DNA of 64,000 nt from Escherichia phage 04086, in sequence record OR842557. One strand, 5' to 3'. Position 1 is the stretch's first letter. Every line of letters starts with the position of its first letter. The translations under genes were made by a program, and so were the position numbers. Below are positions 43,896 through 61,901 of this stretch, in pieces. The notes beneath the pieces were generated by a model that was not told the origin of the DNA, did no database searches, and was given only the letters and a program-made list of their open reading frames with translations.

Positions 43896-44170
43896 TTGAA
43901 GATATCAAGGGTTACAAACCACATACCGACGATAAAATCGGTAAAGTGAATGCTATTAAAGATGCCGAAATTCGGTTAGGGCTGATGTTTAAAGCTCTAG
44001 AAGAAGAACATGTTACCTATTATATGAACTTAGATACCGAAGAGGTTTCTGAACAAGAACTAGACCAGGCTCATGAACGCATTACCCAGATTCGTAATGC
44101 AATTGACCGTCTTAAAGAAGCTAGTATGTGGGCTTGTCGTTCTGTGTTCCAACCAGAAGAAAAGTACTAA
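43892..44170 (+). CDS. hypothetical protein
   Basis: 92-aa ORF. Confidence 0.45.
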   Translation: MIEDIKGYKPHTDDKIGKVNAIKDAEIRLGLMFKALEEEHVTYYMNLDTEEVSEQELDQAHERITQIRNAIDRLKEASMWACRSVFQPEEKY

Positions 44171-44174
44171 AGCA

Positions 44175-44203
44175 GTTTACATCTCCTGTAGACGTGGTAC
44201 TAT
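44175..44203 (+). promoter_or_regulatory. early promoter cassette (GTTTAC-17-TACTAT), near-identical copy of 41559-41587
   Basis: aaagcagtttacatctcctgtag...tactatagacctatcaactacaggagatt; the 3' arm includes the RBS of ORF 44232. Confidence 0.6.
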
Positions 44204-44231
44204 AGACCTATCAACTACAGGAGATTACAAA

Positions 44232-44690
44232 ATGTCAGAAATTAATTCAGAAGTATTCATCCGCCGCAACAAATTACGTCGTCAGTTCGAAACCGAATTC
44301 CGCGAACTGAATGCGTCCATCAAAAAAGCCGCCATTAAGAGCGGAGTCCCAGCCTTCTTTATTAAGTACTCTAATCACTTGTTAGACCGTGCTATCCAAC
44401 GTGAAATCGACGAAAAATACGTTTTTGCTTTATTCAAGCAACTCCATAACCATGTTAAAGAAATTCATGAATTTTTAATCCAGGAACCTCTGCCTGATGT
44501 AGAATCCGAAATTGTCCCTGGTAAAGTGTATCGCCCATTGCGTCTCGAAATTACCGATAAAACCTTATGGTTGGGTATGACCGTAGACCGTAAACATCCT
44601 GATAAAGGATACTCGTTAAAATGTCGTATGGCATTTGTTAACTCTAAACGTTTAGAAGGTAAAACCAGCACGAAAGTAATTTACTTGTGA
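44232..44690 (+). CDS. hypothetical protein
   Basis: 152 aa from ATG 44232 behind the cassette RBS; the ORF-track start at 44073 is an extension through the promoter. Confidence 0.5.
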   Translation: MSEINSEVFIRRNKLRRQFETEFRELNASIKKAAIKSGVPAFFIKYSNHLLDRAIQREIDEKYVFALFKQLHNHVKEIHEFLIQEPLPDVESEIVPGKVYRPLRLEITDKTLWLGMTVDRKHPDKGYSLKCRMAFVNSKRLEGKTSTKVIYL

Positions 44691-44697
44691 GGACAGT

Positions 44698-45432
44698 ATG
44701 GAAACTATAAAATATCCATATGACTACTATAAAATAATAAATGACGCCTTATCTAGGGATACACCTAATGATGCCTATACAGAAAAGCACCATATAATAC
44801 CGAGTTGCGTTGGTGGTCCTGACACTCAAGACAATTTAGTTGAGCTTTATGCTGACGAACATTATTTGGCCCATATGTATCTAGCCAAAGCTAATCCAAA
44901 CCACTATGGGTTGAATTTTGCTTGGCTAAATATGAGCTCTACTTCAAATTCAAAACAAAGGTCTTATTTTGTAGATTCTGAAAATTATAAGTTGGCTAAA
45001 GAATCATTTTCAAAATTGCAATCTATTAATAAAATTTTATTTTTCTCTAAAAAGGAAAATAGGGCTGCTCATTCAATGGCTTTAATAAAGTATTTTGAAA
45101 AGGAAGGCTCTAAAGAACGGCTCAAAGAAATTTTAAATTCGCCAAAAGTAAAAGCTAAAATGTCTGAAAAACGGGTTAAGTATTTTGAAAATCCTGAAAA
45201 TAGACAAAAATTTAAAGCCATACAAAATTCTAAAGAAACTATAGAAAGGAAAAAAGCCTCTTTGCGGAAATCCCCTATATGGCATGAACCGATGTATTCA
45301 CAATTATATAAATTATGGGTAGATAATAATAAACTCAAGTGTGGAAGATTTAGTAAAATCGCAATTAAGAACGGCTTCCCTAATGTAGATTACCGAGGAC
45401 TTATTGATTATGATTTTTCTAAAAAAACTTAA
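44698..45432 (+). CDS. HNH homing endonuclease
   Basis: ...TEKHHIIPSCVGGPDTQDNLVELYADEHYLAHMYL; Lys-rich C-terminal putative DNA-binding region. Confidence 0.8.
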   Translation: METIKYPYDYYKIINDALSRDTPNDAYTEKHHIIPSCVGGPDTQDNLVELYADEHYLAHMYLAKANPNHYGLNFAWLNMSSTSNSKQRSYFVDSENYKLAKESFSKLQSINKILFFSKKENRAAHSMALIKYFEKEGSKERLKEILNSPKVKAKMSEKRVKYFENPENRQKFKAIQNSKETIERKKASLRKSPIWHEPMYSQLYKLWVDNNKLKCGRFSKIAIKNGFPNVDYRGLIDYDFSKKT

Positions 45433-45967
45433 ATATTCTTTAATAGTGGCTATTATGTGTGGTTCGTTTTCTGTAAGTGCAGCAGAACCCGTATTTACAG
45501 AAACCCAGCTTGATAATTTACATTATGCGTATGCTTTCGGTGAACAATACCAAAAGTCGGGAAAGTTCAAAGAAACCCCTAATCAAAAAGGATTAGGATA
45601 TATCATGGCCGGATTACTATGGCAGGAATCATCCGCCGGAATTAATCAAGGTTTAAATAAAGATAAGCACCATGCTTATGGCATGTTCCAAAATTACTTG
45701 CCTACGTTAAGAAGTCGTGTTCAACAGGTAGGTTGGAAGATGTCTGATAAAGAAATAATTCGTATGGTCCAAAAACGACAGAACAGTGCCTCTTGGGCCT
45801 ACATTGAGCTGTCTTATTGGATTGATGTTCACAAAGGTGACCTGAGAAAAGCGATTGCTTCTTATAATGCGGGCTGGAACGTCAAAGCAGGCAGTAAGTA
45901 TGCTTCTGAAGTTCTAGAAAAGGCCAATTACCTAAAATCTAAAAAGATGTTTGAGGCGGTATATTAA
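45404..45967 (+). CDS. secreted lytic transglycosylase-like (SLT domain) protein
   Basis: N-terminal signal-like segment (LIVAIMCGSFSVSAA); LLWQESS ... YGMFQ ... ASYNAG resemble SLT-domain E-S / GLMQ / AYNAG motifs. Confidence 0.5.
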   Translation: MIMIFLKKLKYSLIVAIMCGSFSVSAAEPVFTETQLDNLHYAYAFGEQYQKSGKFKETPNQKGLGYIMAGLLWQESSAGINQGLNKDKHHAYGMFQNYLPTLRSRVQQVGWKMSDKEIIRMVQKRQNSASWAYIELSYWIDVHKGDLRKAIASYNAGWNVKAGSKYASEVLEKANYLKSKKMFEAVY

Positions 45968-46324
45968 ATGATTAAGCAGATGACTATAGCGCTTATGTTG
46001 ATTGCTCCGGGAGTATTAGCGTCACAAGTTGATGATAGTAATAATTCAATTGTCGAGTATGCTACCCGTACAGCAAAAGATTATTGTCATCCGAGTAATA
46101 CTGAATGCATTATCGAATTCAGTTCAAAAATCACAGCTGCTTTTAAAGATGGCCAGAATGACGTAGAGCATCGCCGAATGAAAGAGAAAACTCTTTCTAA
46201 AAGATACGAGCAACGTCTAAACGTTACTGAATGTATTCCGTCTGATAAAAAGTACAAAGAAATGTGCGCGTCTATGGTAGACAGACTCGTTGACTCTTAC
46301 AACCGAGGATTAAACTCTAAATGA
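45968..46324 (+). CDS. predicted periplasmic protein
   Basis: 118 aa; signal-like N-terminus MIKQMTIALMLIAPGVLASQV; four Cys. Confidence 0.45.
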   Translation: MIKQMTIALMLIAPGVLASQVDDSNNSIVEYATRTAKDYCHPSNTECIIEFSSKITAAFKDGQNDVEHRRMKEKTLSKRYEQRLNVTECIPSDKKYKEMCASMVDRLVDSYNRGLNSK

Positions 46325-46788
46325 TTATTGATTATATTAAGGGCGATATTGTCGCCCTGTTTCTTCAAGGTAATAATGTTGCGCACGGGTGCAACTGTTT
46401 CCACACAATGGGTTCAGGCGTAGCTGGACAATTAGCTAAGGCTTATCCGCCTATTCTCGCTATTGATAAAACCACTTATTTAGGCCATTTGGAAAAACTT
46501 GGCACGTTTACTCAAGCCACAGGTAATAAGGGCCAAATTTGCTATAATTTATACACCCAATACGAACCGGGCCCTAATCTTGATTACGGTGCTTTAGTAA
46601 ACTGTATGATAGAATTAAACCGTACCGCAAAGGGTCTTTTGTTTAAACCAAGAATTTATATCCCTCGCATCGGTTGTGGTATTGCTAGTGGTGATTGGGA
46701 CAAGGTTTATCAATTGATTAATTTGTTTACTCCTGATATTAATTTAGTGGTGGTAGATTATGAAAGCCCATTACCCACATCCGTTTGA
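46321..46788 (+). CDS. macro-domain-like protein (possible ADP-ribose binding or processing)
   Basis: 155 aa; GDIVALFLQGNNVAHGCNCFHTMGSGVAGQL resembles the macro-domain GDI...N-A-A-N...GGGV signature; motif-level only. Confidence 0.4.
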   Translation: MIIDYIKGDIVALFLQGNNVAHGCNCFHTMGSGVAGQLAKAYPPILAIDKTTYLGHLEKLGTFTQATGNKGQICYNLYTQYEPGPNLDYGALVNCMIELNRTAKGLLFKPRIYIPRIGCGIASGDWDKVYQLINLFTPDINLVVVDYESPLPTSV

Positions 46789-46972
46789 CCCTAAAAACAA
46801 AGCGGAAATTATTCGACGCTGGACCGAAACCCGAGTAACTAAATGCCCTATAAAAAGTCAACACAACACCGATAAATGGTATATTGGCGAATATGTTGAA
46901 TATACTTTTATAGATAAAAATAAACGTAAACAGCATGTAGAAGAATATTGCTTAAAGGTGCAATGGTTATGA
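46760..46972 (+). CDS. hypothetical protein
   Basis: 70-aa ORF overlapping the macro ORF end. Confidence 0.4.
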   Translation: MKAHYPHPFDPKNKAEIIRRWTETRVTKCPIKSQHNTDKWYIGEYVEYTFIDKNKRKQHVEEYCLKVQWL

Positions 46973-47154
46973 GTCTGAGTAAAGAACAGAAAGATAAATT
47001 GTTTGAGCTTATCCACGAGCTTTTGGATGAGCATGCAGAAGCAAACGCCTTTTATGATGAATACGGCCCTATAGATGCCGAACACCAGGAAGAATTCGCC
47101 AGTCGGTTTGATGAGAAAGAAAACGAATTAATTGCTTATGTAAATAGTCTTTAA
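46969..47154 (+). CDS. hypothetical acidic protein
   Basis: 61 aa from ATG 46969 overlapping the upstream stop. Confidence 0.4.
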   Translation: MSLSKEQKDKLFELIHELLDEHAEANAFYDEYGPIDAEHQEEFASRFDEKENELIAYVNSL

Positions 47155-47163
47155 GAAGGTAAT

Positions 47164-47736
47164 ATGGCTCAACTTTATTTTCACTATGCTGCAATGAATT
47201 CTGGGAAGACTGCTTCATTGCTAACGGCCGCTCATAACTACAAAGAACGCGGTATGGGCGTACTCCTTTTAAAGCCTGCGATAGACAATAGAGAATCAAG
47301 CCATAGCATTTCATCTCGTATAGGGATTAGTCAAGAGGCTAATGCAGTGACTCCGGATATGGACCTATACGAGTTCTATCGTTGGGCTGAATCTCAAAAA
47401 GATATCCACTGTGTGTTTGTGGATGAAGCGCAATTCTTAGAACCTGTACAGATAAAACAACTGGCGAAGATAGTAGACAATTATAATGTTCCGGTTATGT
47501 GCTATGGACTAAGAACTGATTTTCAGGGTAAACTGTTTCCTGGCTCTGCTGAATTACTCGCTACAGCAGATAAACTCGTTGAGTACAAAGGTGTGTGCCA
47601 TTGCGGCCGTAAAGCTACTATGACGGCTCGTATCCAAGATGGTATTGCAATTAAGGACGGAGCCCAAGTTTCTATAGGTGGCAACGATTCTTACGTGTCA
47701 TTGTGCAGGAAGCACTGGATAGAAATAACGAGTTGA
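47164..47736 (+). CDS. tk: thymidine kinase
   Basis: 190 aa; ...YAAMNSGKTASLLTAAHNYKERGM...IHCVFVDEAQFL...VPVMCYGLRTDFQGKLF...VCHCGRKATMTAR...YVSLCRKHW matches T4 Tk. Confidence 0.95.
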   Translation: MAQLYFHYAAMNSGKTASLLTAAHNYKERGMGVLLLKPAIDNRESSHSISSRIGISQEANAVTPDMDLYEFYRWAESQKDIHCVFVDEAQFLEPVQIKQLAKIVDNYNVPVMCYGLRTDFQGKLFPGSAELLATADKLVEYKGVCHCGRKATMTARIQDGIAIKDGAQVSIGGNDSYVSLCRKHWIEITS

Positions 47737-47743
47737 GGGCACT

Positions 47744-48022
47744 ATGGACCTAAATTCAAAGATTTTAATTCTAGCGTTCGCTGTGGCTATTTCTTATATT
47801 GTTCTTTCGCCTATCATGGATGATGTGGCTTACAAAAGAGAGATAGAGGTTGTAGCAGCGACGTATAATGCTAATAATAAAGAATGTCCTAATAAAAATG
47901 GGATGGATTTAATTAAAGCGCATTATATGCTTTCCATTACCTCGCCTATACAGAGGAATTGGGTTGAGCATAATTTTAACGACGTGTTCTATTCTTATTG
48001 TCGTAAGCTTAAAAAGCTATAA
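47744..48022 (+). CDS. predicted membrane protein
   Basis: 92 aa; N-terminal transmembrane helix. Confidence 0.45.
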   Translation: MDLNSKILILAFAVAISYIVLSPIMDDVAYKREIEVVAATYNANNKECPNKNGMDLIKAHYMLSITSPIQRNWVEHNFNDVFYSYCRKLKKL

Positions 48023-48114: not shown

Positions 48115-48408
48115 ATGGATATTTTCCGTACAGCGGCTTGTATCCTTATGGCGGGATGTTTAAGCCCTACAGTTTCACTAGCAAATAACACCAACGATAA
48201 ATTGATGGATGCATTTGCTAGTAGTGCGATGCCTGTTTATGCACAAATGAGTAGACCCAGCGTAAAGGCCTCTGAAGACTATTGGGCCTATGTTACGGCT
48301 TCTTGGAAGATGTCAAGTTGTCGGACTATAGAAGCGTGCTCAATTGAAGGTCGTGCCATCGGAGAGCGTTATGTAAAACTAATGAAGGTGGAAGATGAAG
48401 TTCAATGA
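48115..48408 (+). CDS. predicted lipoprotein
   Basis: 97 aa; signal peptide with lipobox L-M-A-G-C. Confidence 0.55.
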   Translation: MDIFRTAACILMAGCLSPTVSLANNTNDKLMDAFASSAMPVYAQMSRPSVKASEDYWAYVTASWKMSSCRTIEACSIEGRAIGERYVKLMKVEDEVQ

Positions 48409-59864: not shown

Positions 59865-60938
59865 ATGCAAGATTTCGGACATTGGGCGGTATTTGAAGAA
59901 ACCGATATTAAAAACCATATTGGATTTGTATACGTAATCACTTTTGAAGATGGCAAAAAATATGTAGGTGCTAAAAAGATTTGGAAACGAATTAAAGCTG
60001 CACCTTGCACATTTAAACGCGGCCCTAAAAAAGGATTTGAAGAATCTGATTGGAAAACCTATACCTCATCATCTAATGAACTAAACGCAATGATAGAAAA
60101 GGGTATAAGTCCTAAAGAGTACCTTATTGTAGGATGGTATCCTACTTGGGGTAAAACTCTTATGGCAGAAATGGAAATGCAATTAGCCAATGATGTTTTA
60201 CGAGACCCTATGTGGCTTAACAAGCAAATTGGCGGACATTTCAACCCTAACTGCTTTGACGATTTAACCGAAGATGATATTGCAAGATGGATGGAATTTG
60301 ATAAAGGGAACGAACATGTTTCCTGGCCTATGATGTACAAAATCGGTCAGAAAACCAAATATGTTAAACCTGACGAAGTTGGCAAGTATATTAAATCTGG
60401 GTGGCAATTTGGTCGTTCTAAAACAGAAAAACATTCTGTTACCTATAATTGCTCTAAATTTACTATATGGGACTATCAAGAAAATAAAGCAGTGGAAGTT
60501 CTAAATCAAAATGAGTTTGCTCGTAATAATGATTTAAGTAGCAACCATCTAACTAGACTACTTCAAGGAACTCTCGACCTTATTAAAGATCGCTGGGGAC
60601 TTCCACCAGATATTGCTCGTCAGCGTTATAAATTTCAGGACGTTTCTTCAGGAACAAAATTTTTATCTAATTCTGAGTTAGAAGAATTTTACGGTATGAC
60701 TCGCGGTCAGGCTAACAAAGCCGTTAAAGATGGAAGAGCCGTTAAATTGGTAGTCGAAAGCAAAGAAGACCACATTAAAAAACTTGGCTCTATCGAATTG
60801 GTAAAAACCGAAAAGACAAAAGTTACGTCTCAAGTAATGCTTAACAGTTTTAAAGATATAGTTAATCCTATGACCACTGCCGAAAAATCAGAAATGATTG
60901 AATGGTTGGAAAGTTATATAACTTATTTGAAATCTTAA
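59865..60938 (+). CDS. GIY-YIG homing endonuclease (Seg-like)
   Basis: N-terminal IGFVYVITFEDGKKYVGAKK is a GIY-(10)-YIG core; long basic C-terminal putative DNA-binding region. Confidence 0.75.
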   Translation: MQDFGHWAVFEETDIKNHIGFVYVITFEDGKKYVGAKKIWKRIKAAPCTFKRGPKKGFEESDWKTYTSSSNELNAMIEKGISPKEYLIVGWYPTWGKTLMAEMEMQLANDVLRDPMWLNKQIGGHFNPNCFDDLTEDDIARWMEFDKGNEHVSWPMMYKIGQKTKYVKPDEVGKYIKSGWQFGRSKTEKHSVTYNCSKFTIWDYQENKAVEVLNQNEFARNNDLSSNHLTRLLQGTLDLIKDRWGLPPDIARQRYKFQDVSSGTKFLSNSELEEFYGMTRGQANKAVKDGRAVKLVVESKEDHIKKLGSIELVKTEKTKVTSQVMLNSFKDIVNPMTTAEKSEMIEWLESYITYLKS

Positions 60939-61079
60939 TGAGGAAATCGCTTAAATGATTAATTTTTATGGCTACACATTTTATGCTTTAGCCGAATCTC
61001 TGAACGATGCGGTCCGTATTATGGGTGTTGAGTATCCTGCTCAATGGTTATTTGTTGTAACTAACATGTGGGTTCTTTA

Positions 61080-61295
61080 ATGAACAAATTTCGTAATGCT
61101 GTTTCTGATATCCTGGCCAATATTACATTAGTTCTGTTTATCGTATGCCTTTTAATCCTGGCTATTCCGTTTGGATTGCTGTTCATGATTATTGGTGCTC
61201 TGAGTACTGAAAAAGGTCTTGAAGGGTCTGAGTTCGACAAACGAATCCAGGCTGTTCATAGTGTTATTGCAAAAATGATGAAGGTGAAAGAATGA
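61080..61295 (+). CDS. small membrane protein
   Basis: 71 aa from ATG 61080; one long hydrophobic helix. Confidence 0.45.
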   Translation: MNKFRNAVSDILANITLVLFIVCLLILAIPFGLLFMIIGALSTEKGLEGSEFDKRIQAVHSVIAKMMKVKE

Positions 61296-61603
61296 AACGT
61301 TTTGAAGAATATGTAGCTTTGAATTGGACCGCTTGGGACAAGTTTGGTGATGATTGGTACTTCCATGACTGTGACCTGAACCCGGAATTCTTTAAAGGTA
61401 AGGAAGAAGACCTCAAGGACATCTACGCTTTATCAGAGATTCATGGTATTAAACCTACCGTGTATTTCTCTTTTGATGACACAGGTTTCCTTGTACAGAT
61501 TTATGTTCCTTATGAAACTGTTGATGACGAAGCTGTTTGTGAAGAAGTTCTAAAAACCTGGGACTACCAAGGAGTTATTTCCTGTGGACCAAAAGTTAAC
61601 TAA
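61292..61603 (+). CDS. hypothetical acidic protein
   Basis: 103-aa ORF. Confidence 0.45.
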   Translation: MKRFEEYVALNWTAWDKFGDDWYFHDCDLNPEFFKGKEEDLKDIYALSEIHGIKPTVYFSFDDTGFLVQIYVPYETVDDEAVCEEVLKTWDYQGVISCGPKVN

Positions 61604-61901
61604 AATCGAAATCTACGGCATCCCTGAGACAGTCATGCGCTGTCCAGGGTGCATTGCTGTTCTATCGCTCCTAAATTCCCTTTCTATCCCACATACTTTC
61701 TATCCTGTGATTAATCAGACGCCGTCAGGCGCAGTATATGACAAGCCTCTTATAGTATCATTGGCCAAACGTGCAGGCTTCAAGAGCTTAGCGATACGCT
61801 ATCCTGTCATATTTGTCGATAATAAGAAAATAGAAAATATTCCTGCCTTTAAGTCACTTTTGATTGAACTTGGTTATGACCGAGATTTAATTGAAGATTA
61901 G
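61584..61901 (+). CDS. possible thioredoxin-fold (CxxC) protein
   Basis: 105 aa; N-terminal beta-strand then CPGC motif; weak. Confidence 0.35.
   Translation: MDQKLTKIEIYGIPETVMRCPGCIAVLSLLNSLSIPHTFYPVINQTPSGAVYDKPLIVSLAKRAGFKSLAIRYPVIFVDNKKIENIPAFKSLLIELGYDRDLIED

Follow-up and report, generated by a model that had tools for sequence, protein, structure and literature searches.

Gene Content of the Locus

The vs.1-vs-tk.4 segment of Escherichia phage 04086 (sequence record OR842557) was analyzed within a stretch of 64,000 nucleotides, which is referred to as the window. A preliminary description of this DNA had noted three consecutive open reading frames (ORFs) at 45404-46788 and proposed a secreted protein with an SLT domain, a periplasmic cysteine-containing protein, and a macro domain-like protein. 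The three ORFs lie on the plus strand as described, at 45404 (TTG) or 45410 (ATG) to 45967, 45968-46324, and 46321-46788. The signatures named for them were also found: WQESS and SYNAG in ORF1 for the E-S and AYNAG-like motifs, a hydrophobic leader and Cys residues in ORF2, and KGDI...N25...GSGVA in ORF3 for the GDI...N...GSGV signature.

Approximately 2.2 kb around the segment showed 96-97% DNA identity to the Escherichia phages PSD2002, vB_EcoM_FB, IME540, and Bp7. These are T4-like myoviruses, and the retrieved records of Bp7 and IME540 are classed in the genus Dhakavirus. By sequence, the window is assigned to a T4-like phage of this genus. In Bp7 the matching genes are annotated, in order, as regB, vs.1, vs, tk.4, tk.3, tk.2, and tk, which is also the gene order of T4. 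Sequence comparison identifies ORFs 1-3 as the orthologues of T4 vs.1, vs, and tk.4, again in T4 order, with protein identities of 61% (Vs.1), 46% (Vs), and 53% (Tk.4). Because all three ORFs matched PHROG families (E-values of 3e-64 for ORF1, 3e-34 for ORF2 with phrog_1256, and 1.5e-65 for ORF3) and were found by tblastn in 2039, 795, and 2807 phage records, respectively, they are judged from their conservation to be real genes and not chance ORFs. A GAGG(A) Shine-Dalgarno sequence can be read 10-11 nucleotides 5' of each ATG. The TAA stop codon of vs.1 abuts the ATG start codon of vs, and vs and tk.4 overlap in the sequence ATGA. For ORF1, the ATG at 45410, which is the start annotated in IME540, is likely to be used rather than the TTG at 45404. 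The coordinates of all features are collected in Table 1.

Table 1. Features of the vs.1-vs-tk.4 segment and its neighbors in the window
Feature	Position	Strand	Basis
vs.1, GH23/SLT lysozyme-like protein, predicted exported, 185 residues (alternative TTG start 45404)	45410..45967	+	
Vs.1 predicted Sec signal peptide, residues 1-24, MIFLKKLKYSLIVAIMCGSFSVSA-AEP	45410..45481	+	Positive n-region, hydrophobic core, AXA-like site
Vs.1 Glu73 codon (WQESS), predicted catalytic acid	45626..45628	+	Invariant in 79/79; goose-type lysozyme ES(R/A)AG segment in profile alignment
Vs.1 SYNAG, family-1 lytic transglycosylase motif III	45860..45874	+	Y, N, and G invariant in 79/79; aligns with AYNAG of g-type lysozyme
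vs, 118 residues, annotated "valyl-tRNA synthetase modifier"	45968..46324	+	phrog_1256, E 3e-34; 46% identity to T4 Vs
Vs predicted Sec signal peptide, residues 1-18, MIKQMTIALMLIAPGVLA-SQV	45968..46021	+	Hydrophobic leader in all family members
tk.4/adfM orthologue, stand-alone macrodomain, 155 residues	46321..46788	+	Pfam Macro (PF01661), 29.8 bits, cut-off 22; 53% identity to T4 Tk.4
Tk.4 Asn25 codon (HGCNC), conserved macrodomain Asn	46393..46395	+	Invariant in 29/29
Tk.4 Gln80 codon (NLYTQ), at the position of the catalytic lysine (TARG1 Lys84/DarG Lys80)	46558..46560	+	Invariant in 29/29
regB endoribonuclease, upstream neighbor as in T4	44226..44690	+	Pfam REGB_T4, E 5e-69; same position in Bp7 and T4
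HNH-type homing endonuclease between regB and vs.1	44698..45432	+	phrog_655, E 3e-36; weak Pfam HNH match
tk.3, tk.2, and tk, downstream neighbors as in T4 and Bp7	46760..47736	+	Pfam DUF7202, DUF7438, and TK; Bp7 annotation

Conserved Motifs and Leader of Vs.1

In an alignment of 35 Vs.1 homologues (37-89% identity) the invariant residues are Glu73 (WQESS), Gly91, Gln94 (GMFQ), Tyr152, Asn153, and Gly155 (SYNAG), and Tyr164, and they coincide exactly with the motifs of the family-1 lytic transglycosylases. In a wider set of 79 Vs.1 loci, all of them were retained in 79/79 sequences except Gln94, which was retained in 77/79. A profile alignment to salmon g-type lysozyme brought the ES, G-x-x-Q, and YNAG segments into register; the matches of the profile to g-type lysozymes in the PDB were weak (E 0.13) and were used for the motif register only. 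The 17 best Foldseek matches of Vs.1 were all lytic transglycosylases or g-type lysozymes, in agreement with a lysozyme-like α-helical fold. Precomputed PF01464 (SLT) matches were present in 18 of the 89 Vs.1 homologues listed. Marginal SLT similarity has been reported before for six T4-like Vs.1 orthologues (Nolan et al. 2006, PMC1524935).

The N terminus of Vs.1 has the layout of a Sec leader, with a positively charged n-region, a hydrophobic core (H10 2.48), and small residues at -3 and -1. This layout was kept in 32/35 and 65/68 distinct homologues, whereas the leader sequence itself is not conserved. In the structure model, residues 1-20 had a per-residue confidence (pLDDT) of about 50 or below. 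The heuristic test that was applied to all three families asks for the three elements of this layout; it was passed by 32/35 Vs.1 and 21/26 Vs sequences, and by 1/29 sequences of Tk.4, which served as the cytoplasmic control. The cysteine within the Vs.1 leader (AIMCG) was considered as part of a lipobox and rejected, because the motif is not a lipobox and the cysteine is not conserved.

The conserved motifs, the g-type lysozyme register, and the conserved leader layout uphold the proposal of an SLT-type fold behind a signal peptide. Vs.1 is most likely an exported enzyme of the GH23/SLT type with a computed mature mass of ~18.5 kDa, as judged from its sequence, from which alone a lytic transglycosylase is indistinguishable from a hydrolase.

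Leader and Cysteines of Vs

The Vs family combines a leader with a fixed set of cysteines. An alignment of 26 homologues showed a hydrophobic leader in every sequence and invariant Cys40, Cys47, Cys89, and Cys100. Across 60 distinct family members the hydrophobic leader was present in 60/60, with the positive n-region and the small-residue site kept while the leader sequence drifts. Exactly four cysteines were found in the mature part of 58/60, arranged as C-x5-10-C, ~40 residues, and C-x8-10-C. The two exceptions are shortened ORFs that have lost two of the four cysteines (L010 3541-3798, 85 residues; L043 3561-3758, 65 residues), and they are probably pseudogenes or sequencing frameshifts. 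In five homologues, which start with MKKLFVLLVVFALSGC and stand directly after vs.1 (loci L039, L040, L041, L043, and L056), the leader carries the canonical lipobox LSGC, and these proteins are predicted lipoproteins. The AlphaFold2 model of Vs consists of four helices (pLDDT 78.7, below 50 for residues 1-21). Mature Vs of this phage has a computed mass of ~11.5 kDa. The sequence family thus agrees with the preliminary proposal of a periplasmic, Cys-containing product for ORF2.

Precomputed PF26829 matches were present in 28/28 Vs homologues. A profile search with Vs against 1.84 billion representatives gave 8 matches, among which no cellular relatives were seen; seven of the eight were short proteins (77-119 residues) resembling phage Vs. 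The eighth, a protein of 3,694 residues from the representative library (P0239), contains ~17 near-identical repeats, of which a Cys-containing segment was weakly matched (E 8e-10 against the Vs profile); it was judged to be a spurious sum of weak matches. Sequence searches with Vs and Vs.1 against PDB chains gave chance matches only (E 0.5-0.7), and scans with PADLOC and NCBIfam returned nothing for either protein.

Pairing of vs.1 and vs

Gene order was scored with family hidden Markov models in 70 IMG/VR loci with a Vs.1 homologue together with the other loci in hand; the counts refer to 79 loci with Vs.1 and flanks of 3 kb. A Vs family ORF was found within 3 kb downstream of vs.1 in 71/79 loci, and in 62/79 vs followed directly, its start lying -8 to +7 nucleotides from the vs.1 stop codon. 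The position of tk.4 varied, from 254-1988 nucleotides downstream of vs.1 to upstream of it, and the gene was missing from the 3-kb flank in 18/79 loci. In several genera, other genes sit between vs and tk.4. Because vs mostly follows vs.1 directly and the position of tk.4 varies, the conserved unit is vs.1-vs, both genes carrying predicted export signals, and tk.4 is a neighbor of this unit and not its partner. The three genes are syntenic, but they are not one module. Of the cluster put forward in the preliminary description, the vs.1-vs part was retained and the inclusion of tk.4 was not. From its predicted leaders, the vs.1-vs unit looks like a periplasmic pair.

In Klebsiella Jiaodavirus (L008 2351-2743) and Acinetobacter Lazarusvirus (L006 2776-3201), vs is followed by a third leader-bearing ORF (phrog_4957, 130-141 residues, two conserved cysteines). 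The window has no equivalent of it.

Macrodomain of Tk.4

The macro domain suggested for ORF3 was confirmed by the Pfam score (Table 1) and by profile matches to solved macrodomains. In the PDB, the Tk.4 family profile matched BT1257 (5e-22), human TARG1 (7e-19), SCO6735 of Streptomyces coelicolor (2e-17), yeast Poa1p (1.6e-14), and the DarG macrodomains of Thermus aquaticus (3e-11) and Mycobacterium tuberculosis (1e-9). On the strength of this profile comparison, Tk.4 is assigned to the TARG1/SCO6735/DarG group of macrodomains. Invariant in 29 sequences are His22, Asn25, the loop G31-x-G33-V-A35, N76-L-Y-T-Q80, and P115-x-I-G-x-G120, and the ADP-ribose-binding elements Asn25, Gly31, Gly33, Ala35, Pro115, Ile117, Gly118, and Gly120 are invariant or nearly so. 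The asparagine equivalent to Asn25 is required for the activity of SCO6735, DarG, and PhiKZ AdfM (PMC9411070; PMC13309987). In the alignment with TARG1, the lysine of LITK stands opposite Gln80 and the aspartate of GCGLD opposite Ala122, and the TARG1-type dyad Lys84/Asp125 (numbering partly from PMC9411070) is absent from Tk.4. SCO6735 has an essential glutamine, Gln85, at the lysine position, and its Asn27 also matters; this enzyme takes thymidine-linked ADP-ribose off DNA and confers protection against DarT (PMC9411070).

Identity of Tk.4 with the antitoxin DarG was considered and rejected, because the matches of the DarG models are limited to the macrodomain. The NCBIfam DarG model scored 17.1 bits against a cut-off of 250, and the PADLOC DarG match (E 6e-5) covered profile positions 3-142 of 329. 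The neighbors of tk.4 are vs and tk.3; an adjacent darT and a DarT-binding C-terminal domain are absent.

In T4, tk.4 was the single gene conditionally required on a DarTG2 host; a clean knockout confirmed the result, and the gene was named adfM (bioRxiv 10.1101/2025.11.20.689424). A separate macrodomain of PhiKZ, which bears the name AdfM as well, frees DarT2-modified TNTC DNA of ADP-ribose in vitro (PMC13309987). The support for an anti-DarTG2 role is thus genetic for T4 Tk.4 only and biochemical for SCO6735 and PhiKZ AdfM. The counter-defense role that had been suggested for the macro domain is borne out for the T4 orthologue, and tk.4 of this phage is a probable anti-DarTG2 gene.

Behavior of T4 Insertion Mutants

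In T4, vs.1 is classed as non-essential on K-12, with insertions in 46/52 TA sites, whereas insertions in the endolysin gene e are nearly absent (mean count ~2.5). Because T4 vs.1 is non-essential, Vs.1 is not the endolysin, in line with the preliminary view of a cell-wall enzyme apart from it. In the T4 transposon data of supplementary table 6 of bioRxiv 10.1101/2025.11.20.689424, the read counts in LB of insertion mutants in vs (26.6) and vs.1 (22.6) were ~10-fold lower than those of the flanking genes (178-652). The vs knockout was impaired specifically in minimal medium (log2 fold change -2.19); for vs.1 in M9, a downward trend of -0.87 was not significant. On the clinical isolate CFE299, vs.1 was significantly depleted (log2 fold change -1.20, adjusted p 0.015). 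The main text of the preprint makes no mention of vs.1, including this depletion.

The vs and vs.1 mutants may behave alike because the two genes share a function, or because insertions in vs.1 are polar on vs. A toxin-antidote model with Vs as the inhibitor of Vs.1 was judged unlikely: insertions in vs.1 are expected to abolish both products, yet they are not neutral in the T4 data; the same polarity weakens this test.

Flanking Genes

The preferred start of regB (44226-44232, ~152-154 residues) is favored by the Pfam REGB_T4 match and the Bp7 annotation; in the mechanical ORF list the gene is stretched upstream to 44073 (44073-44690, 205 residues). The homing endonuclease between regB and vs.1 is present in IME540 and absent in Bp7, and it overlaps the start of vs.1 at its 3' end. 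At its own 5' end, which codes for the leader, vs.1 is wholly different in the window (MIFLKKLKYSLIVAIMCGSFSVSA) and in Bp7 (MKKVLATLLLTVSMSA...), a pattern that resembles co-conversion of flanking DNA in the course of homing. In IME540, a second, "intron-like" endonuclease gene (L002 3665-4402) stands between tk.2 and tk; in the window the gap between these genes is only 9 nucleotides (47155-47163), so this site is empty.

Just downstream of tk lies a 92-residue ORF with an N-terminal hydrophobic segment (phrog_6298, 47744-48022), followed by the lysis inhibition gene rI (phrog_1246) at 48115-48408. The two encode further small envelope-directed proteins near tk. On the plus strand at 46340-46358, 20 nucleotides inside the tk.4 coding sequence, a GC-rich hairpin with a T-rich run behind it resembles a terminator and may be a chance or a regulatory structure. 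A promoter scan found 25 candidates, not clearly above the shuffled expectation of 18 ± 3.7, and promoters are not claimed.

Two Probably Unrelated Functions Side by Side

The gene identities, folds, motifs, leaders, and synteny observed here are best explained if the region is the vs.1-vs-tk.4 segment of the T4-like early block, in which an exported Vs.1/Vs pair and an anti-DarTG2 protein, Tk.4, lie next to each other with unrelated functions. We estimate the probability of this explanation at about 75%. The segment would belong to the early, leftward-transcribed block of a Dhakavirus. The genes vs.1 and vs would form a translationally coupled pair, and the products of both would most likely leave the cytoplasm via the Sec pathway. 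With Glu73 as its predicted catalytic acid, Vs.1 would then cut peptidoglycan at the MurNAc-GlcNAc bond. Vs would mature to a four-helix protein, probably with two disulfides, and most likely act in the envelope together with Vs.1; such cooperation, like export and the enzymatic activities, is what we infer from the observations above. Tk.4 would remain in the cytoplasm as a stand-alone macrodomain of the SCO6735 type, with His22, Asn25, Gln80, and the Gly-rich loops, and, as the orthologue of T4 AdfM, would strip off the ADP-ribose that the host toxin DarT2 has attached to thymidines in phage single-stranded DNA, by which the DarTG2 defense would be neutralized. For T4, others have shown a requirement for tk.4 on DarTG2 hosts only and for vs in minimal medium (bioRxiv 10.1101/2025.11.20.689424).

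Several points weigh against this explanation. The Foldseek E-values for Vs.1 are weak (0.04-0.7), and its match to the Pfam SLT profile (PF01464; E 0.01, 15.9 bits) falls below the gathering score of 21.3; of the profile searches for macro and SLT families that had been suggested as a check, only the first cleared its cut-off. Export of Vs.1 and Vs is predicted from a crude heuristic and from conservation. In some lineages, the Aeromonas 44RR-like phages and the Ackermannviridae, Vs.1 occurs without Vs, and the likeness of the T4 vs.1 and vs mutants may be due just to polarity. Tk.4 is only 53% identical to the T4 protein that was tested, and its anti-DarTG2 role in this phage is proposed by analogy. 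Finally, classical genetics links vs to the modification of valyl-tRNA synthetase (ValRS), a cytoplasmic enzyme, and the minimal medium defect of T4 vs is likewise consistent with a function in tRNA charging.

The last two points lead to the alternative that survives best, although we consider it unlikely. Vs may be the classical tau factor, a peptide that stays in the cytoplasm and binds the ValRS of the host; its N terminus would then not be a working export signal, and its cysteines could serve, for example, in metal binding. Vs is annotated as "valyl-tRNA synthetase modifier" in T4 and most relatives, mutations in vs are reported to interact genetically with valS(ts), and a defect specific to minimal medium would suit a role in aminoacylation under nutrient limitation. 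Against this, a leader is kept in 60/60 family members while the leader sequence drifts. The five lipoboxes are sensible only outside the cytoplasm, and vs is coupled to another leader-bearing gene. Spacings of C-x5-10-C are not the usual pattern of a zinc site, which speaks against cytoplasmic metal binding. The tau factor reportedly has a mass of ~10-11 kDa; computed masses of T4 Vs are 11.0 kDa for the processed protein and 13.1 kDa for the precursor, and a factor of ~11 kDa is nearer to the processed form. Processing, in turn, implies export. The sequence record of 1986 labels the T4 ORF only "ORF 60.9," and our literature searches did not reveal how the name vs came to it. The predicted topology argues against access to ValRS, and the label of a modifier of this cytoplasmic enzyme does not fit a protein with a putative export signal. 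We regard export as the more likely topology of Vs.

Instead of being an early envelope remodeler that works with Vs, Vs.1 might also be an accessory enzyme of lysis, in effect another endolysin, or might serve in superinfection or lysis from without. Its fold is common to phage endolysins and virion lytic transglycosylases (phiKZ gp144, T7 gp16), distant homologues in FelixO1-like phages are annotated as "putative lysin," and rI is found, with other envelope genes, 1.5-2.5 kb downstream. Against this stands the contrast in T4 between the tolerated insertions in vs.1 and those almost absent from gene e. Furthermore, early synthesis and Sec export of a muramidase would be lethal if the enzyme served as a lysin, and vs.1 lies in the early-transcribed block, distant from the late lysis genes. 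We therefore consider a lysis function improbable.

Slightly less probable still is that Tk.4 is an ADP-ribose-1''-phosphate phosphatase, or that it reverses the protein or RNA ADP-ribosylation by the phage enzymes Alt, ModA, and ModB, and is not a DNA de-ADP-ribosylase. PHROG and RefSeq carry the label "phosphatase," yeast Poa1p is among the PDB relatives, and T4-like phages do encode ADP-ribosyltransferases. However, the sole phenotype found for T4 tk.4 was on DarTG2 hosts, and the active site pattern matches that of SCO6735, which cleaves thymidine-linked ADP-ribose from DNA. That vs.1, vs, and tk.4 form one host manipulation or counter-defense operon with cooperating products, as their adjacency, shared orientation, and translational coupling here and in T4 might suggest, is very improbable in view of the varying or missing tk.4 and the intervening genes across the Vs.1 loci, the leaderless Tk.4, and the T4 data, in which the response to DarTG2 is confined to tk.4 and that to minimal medium to vs.

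Implications for the Annotation of Vs

The interpretation given in the preliminary description was largely supported, and most of it had been described before. In T4, vs.1, vs, and tk.4 have long been known; the similarities of Vs.1 to SLT and of Tk.4 to A1pp/macro domains were both published in 2006 (PMC1524935), and the anti-DarTG2 role of T4 tk.4 in a 2025 preprint (bioRxiv 10.1101/2025.11.20.689424). For the most part this is routine annotation of a T4-like phage, with a probable anti-DarTG2 gene and a predicted exported cell-wall enzyme, both flagged earlier by other groups. Novelty may lie only in the evidence for export of the Vs family and for its coupling to Vs.1.

A bolder proposal, which we hold as tentative and rather unlikely, is that the Vs family as a whole consists of exported, disulfide-bonded envelope proteins, lipoproteins in some phages, that form a conserved two-gene periplasmic module with the Vs.1 muramidase in T4-like phages. 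If this were true, the name ValRS modifier might be a mis-assignment or describe an indirect or post-lysis effect, a consequence we regard with the same reserve. A label 50 years old is attached here to a family whose every member looks exported and that is coupled to a predicted periplasmic muramidase. If the location of Vs were settled, either a long-standing annotation that hundreds of phage genomes have inherited would be corrected, or an uncommon way for a protein with a leader to get to a cytoplasmic enzyme would come to light. A starting point would also be gained for explaining the export of a lysozyme-like enzyme by T4-like phages at an early stage of infection.

Comparison with Known Systems

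The closest known counterpart is T4 itself, where vs.1 (NC_000866 61,726-62,271), vs (61,386-61,733), and tk.4 (60,922-61,389) have the same order, orientation, and coupling as in the window. Both phages share regB upstream and tk.3, tk.2, and tk downstream. Unlike T4, a Tequatrovirus, the window carries a homing endonuclease between regB and vs.1, which replaces the leader-coding 5' end of vs.1, and it lacks tk.1.

Tk.4 is orthologous to T4 AdfM by synteny and by its identity over the full length, with all family-invariant residues in common. AdfM of PhiKZ bears the same name, yet it is a separate, nucleus-imported macrodomain that is unrelated to T4-type Tk.4 (PMC13309987). SCO6735 (PDB 5e3b), TARG1, and the DarG macrodomains belong to the same ALC1-like/TARG1 group as Tk.4. 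With SCO6735, Tk.4 shares the glutamine in place of the catalytic lysine and the conserved His/Asn pair; from TARG1 it differs by the absence of the Lys84/Asp125 dyad, and from DarG by the absence of the DarT-binding C-terminal domain and of an adjacent darT.

Compared with the family-1 lytic transglycosylases and other GH23 proteins (Slt70, MltE, MltC, EtgA, and goose-type lysozyme), to which its sequence similarity is marginal, Vs.1 is a minimal single domain of ~160 residues that is carried by a phage and predicted to have its own Sec leader. The T4 proteins Spackle and RI are helical proteins of ~100 residues with leaders that are made early and act in the envelope, and Vs resembles these small periplasmic proteins in its size, its helices, and its leader.

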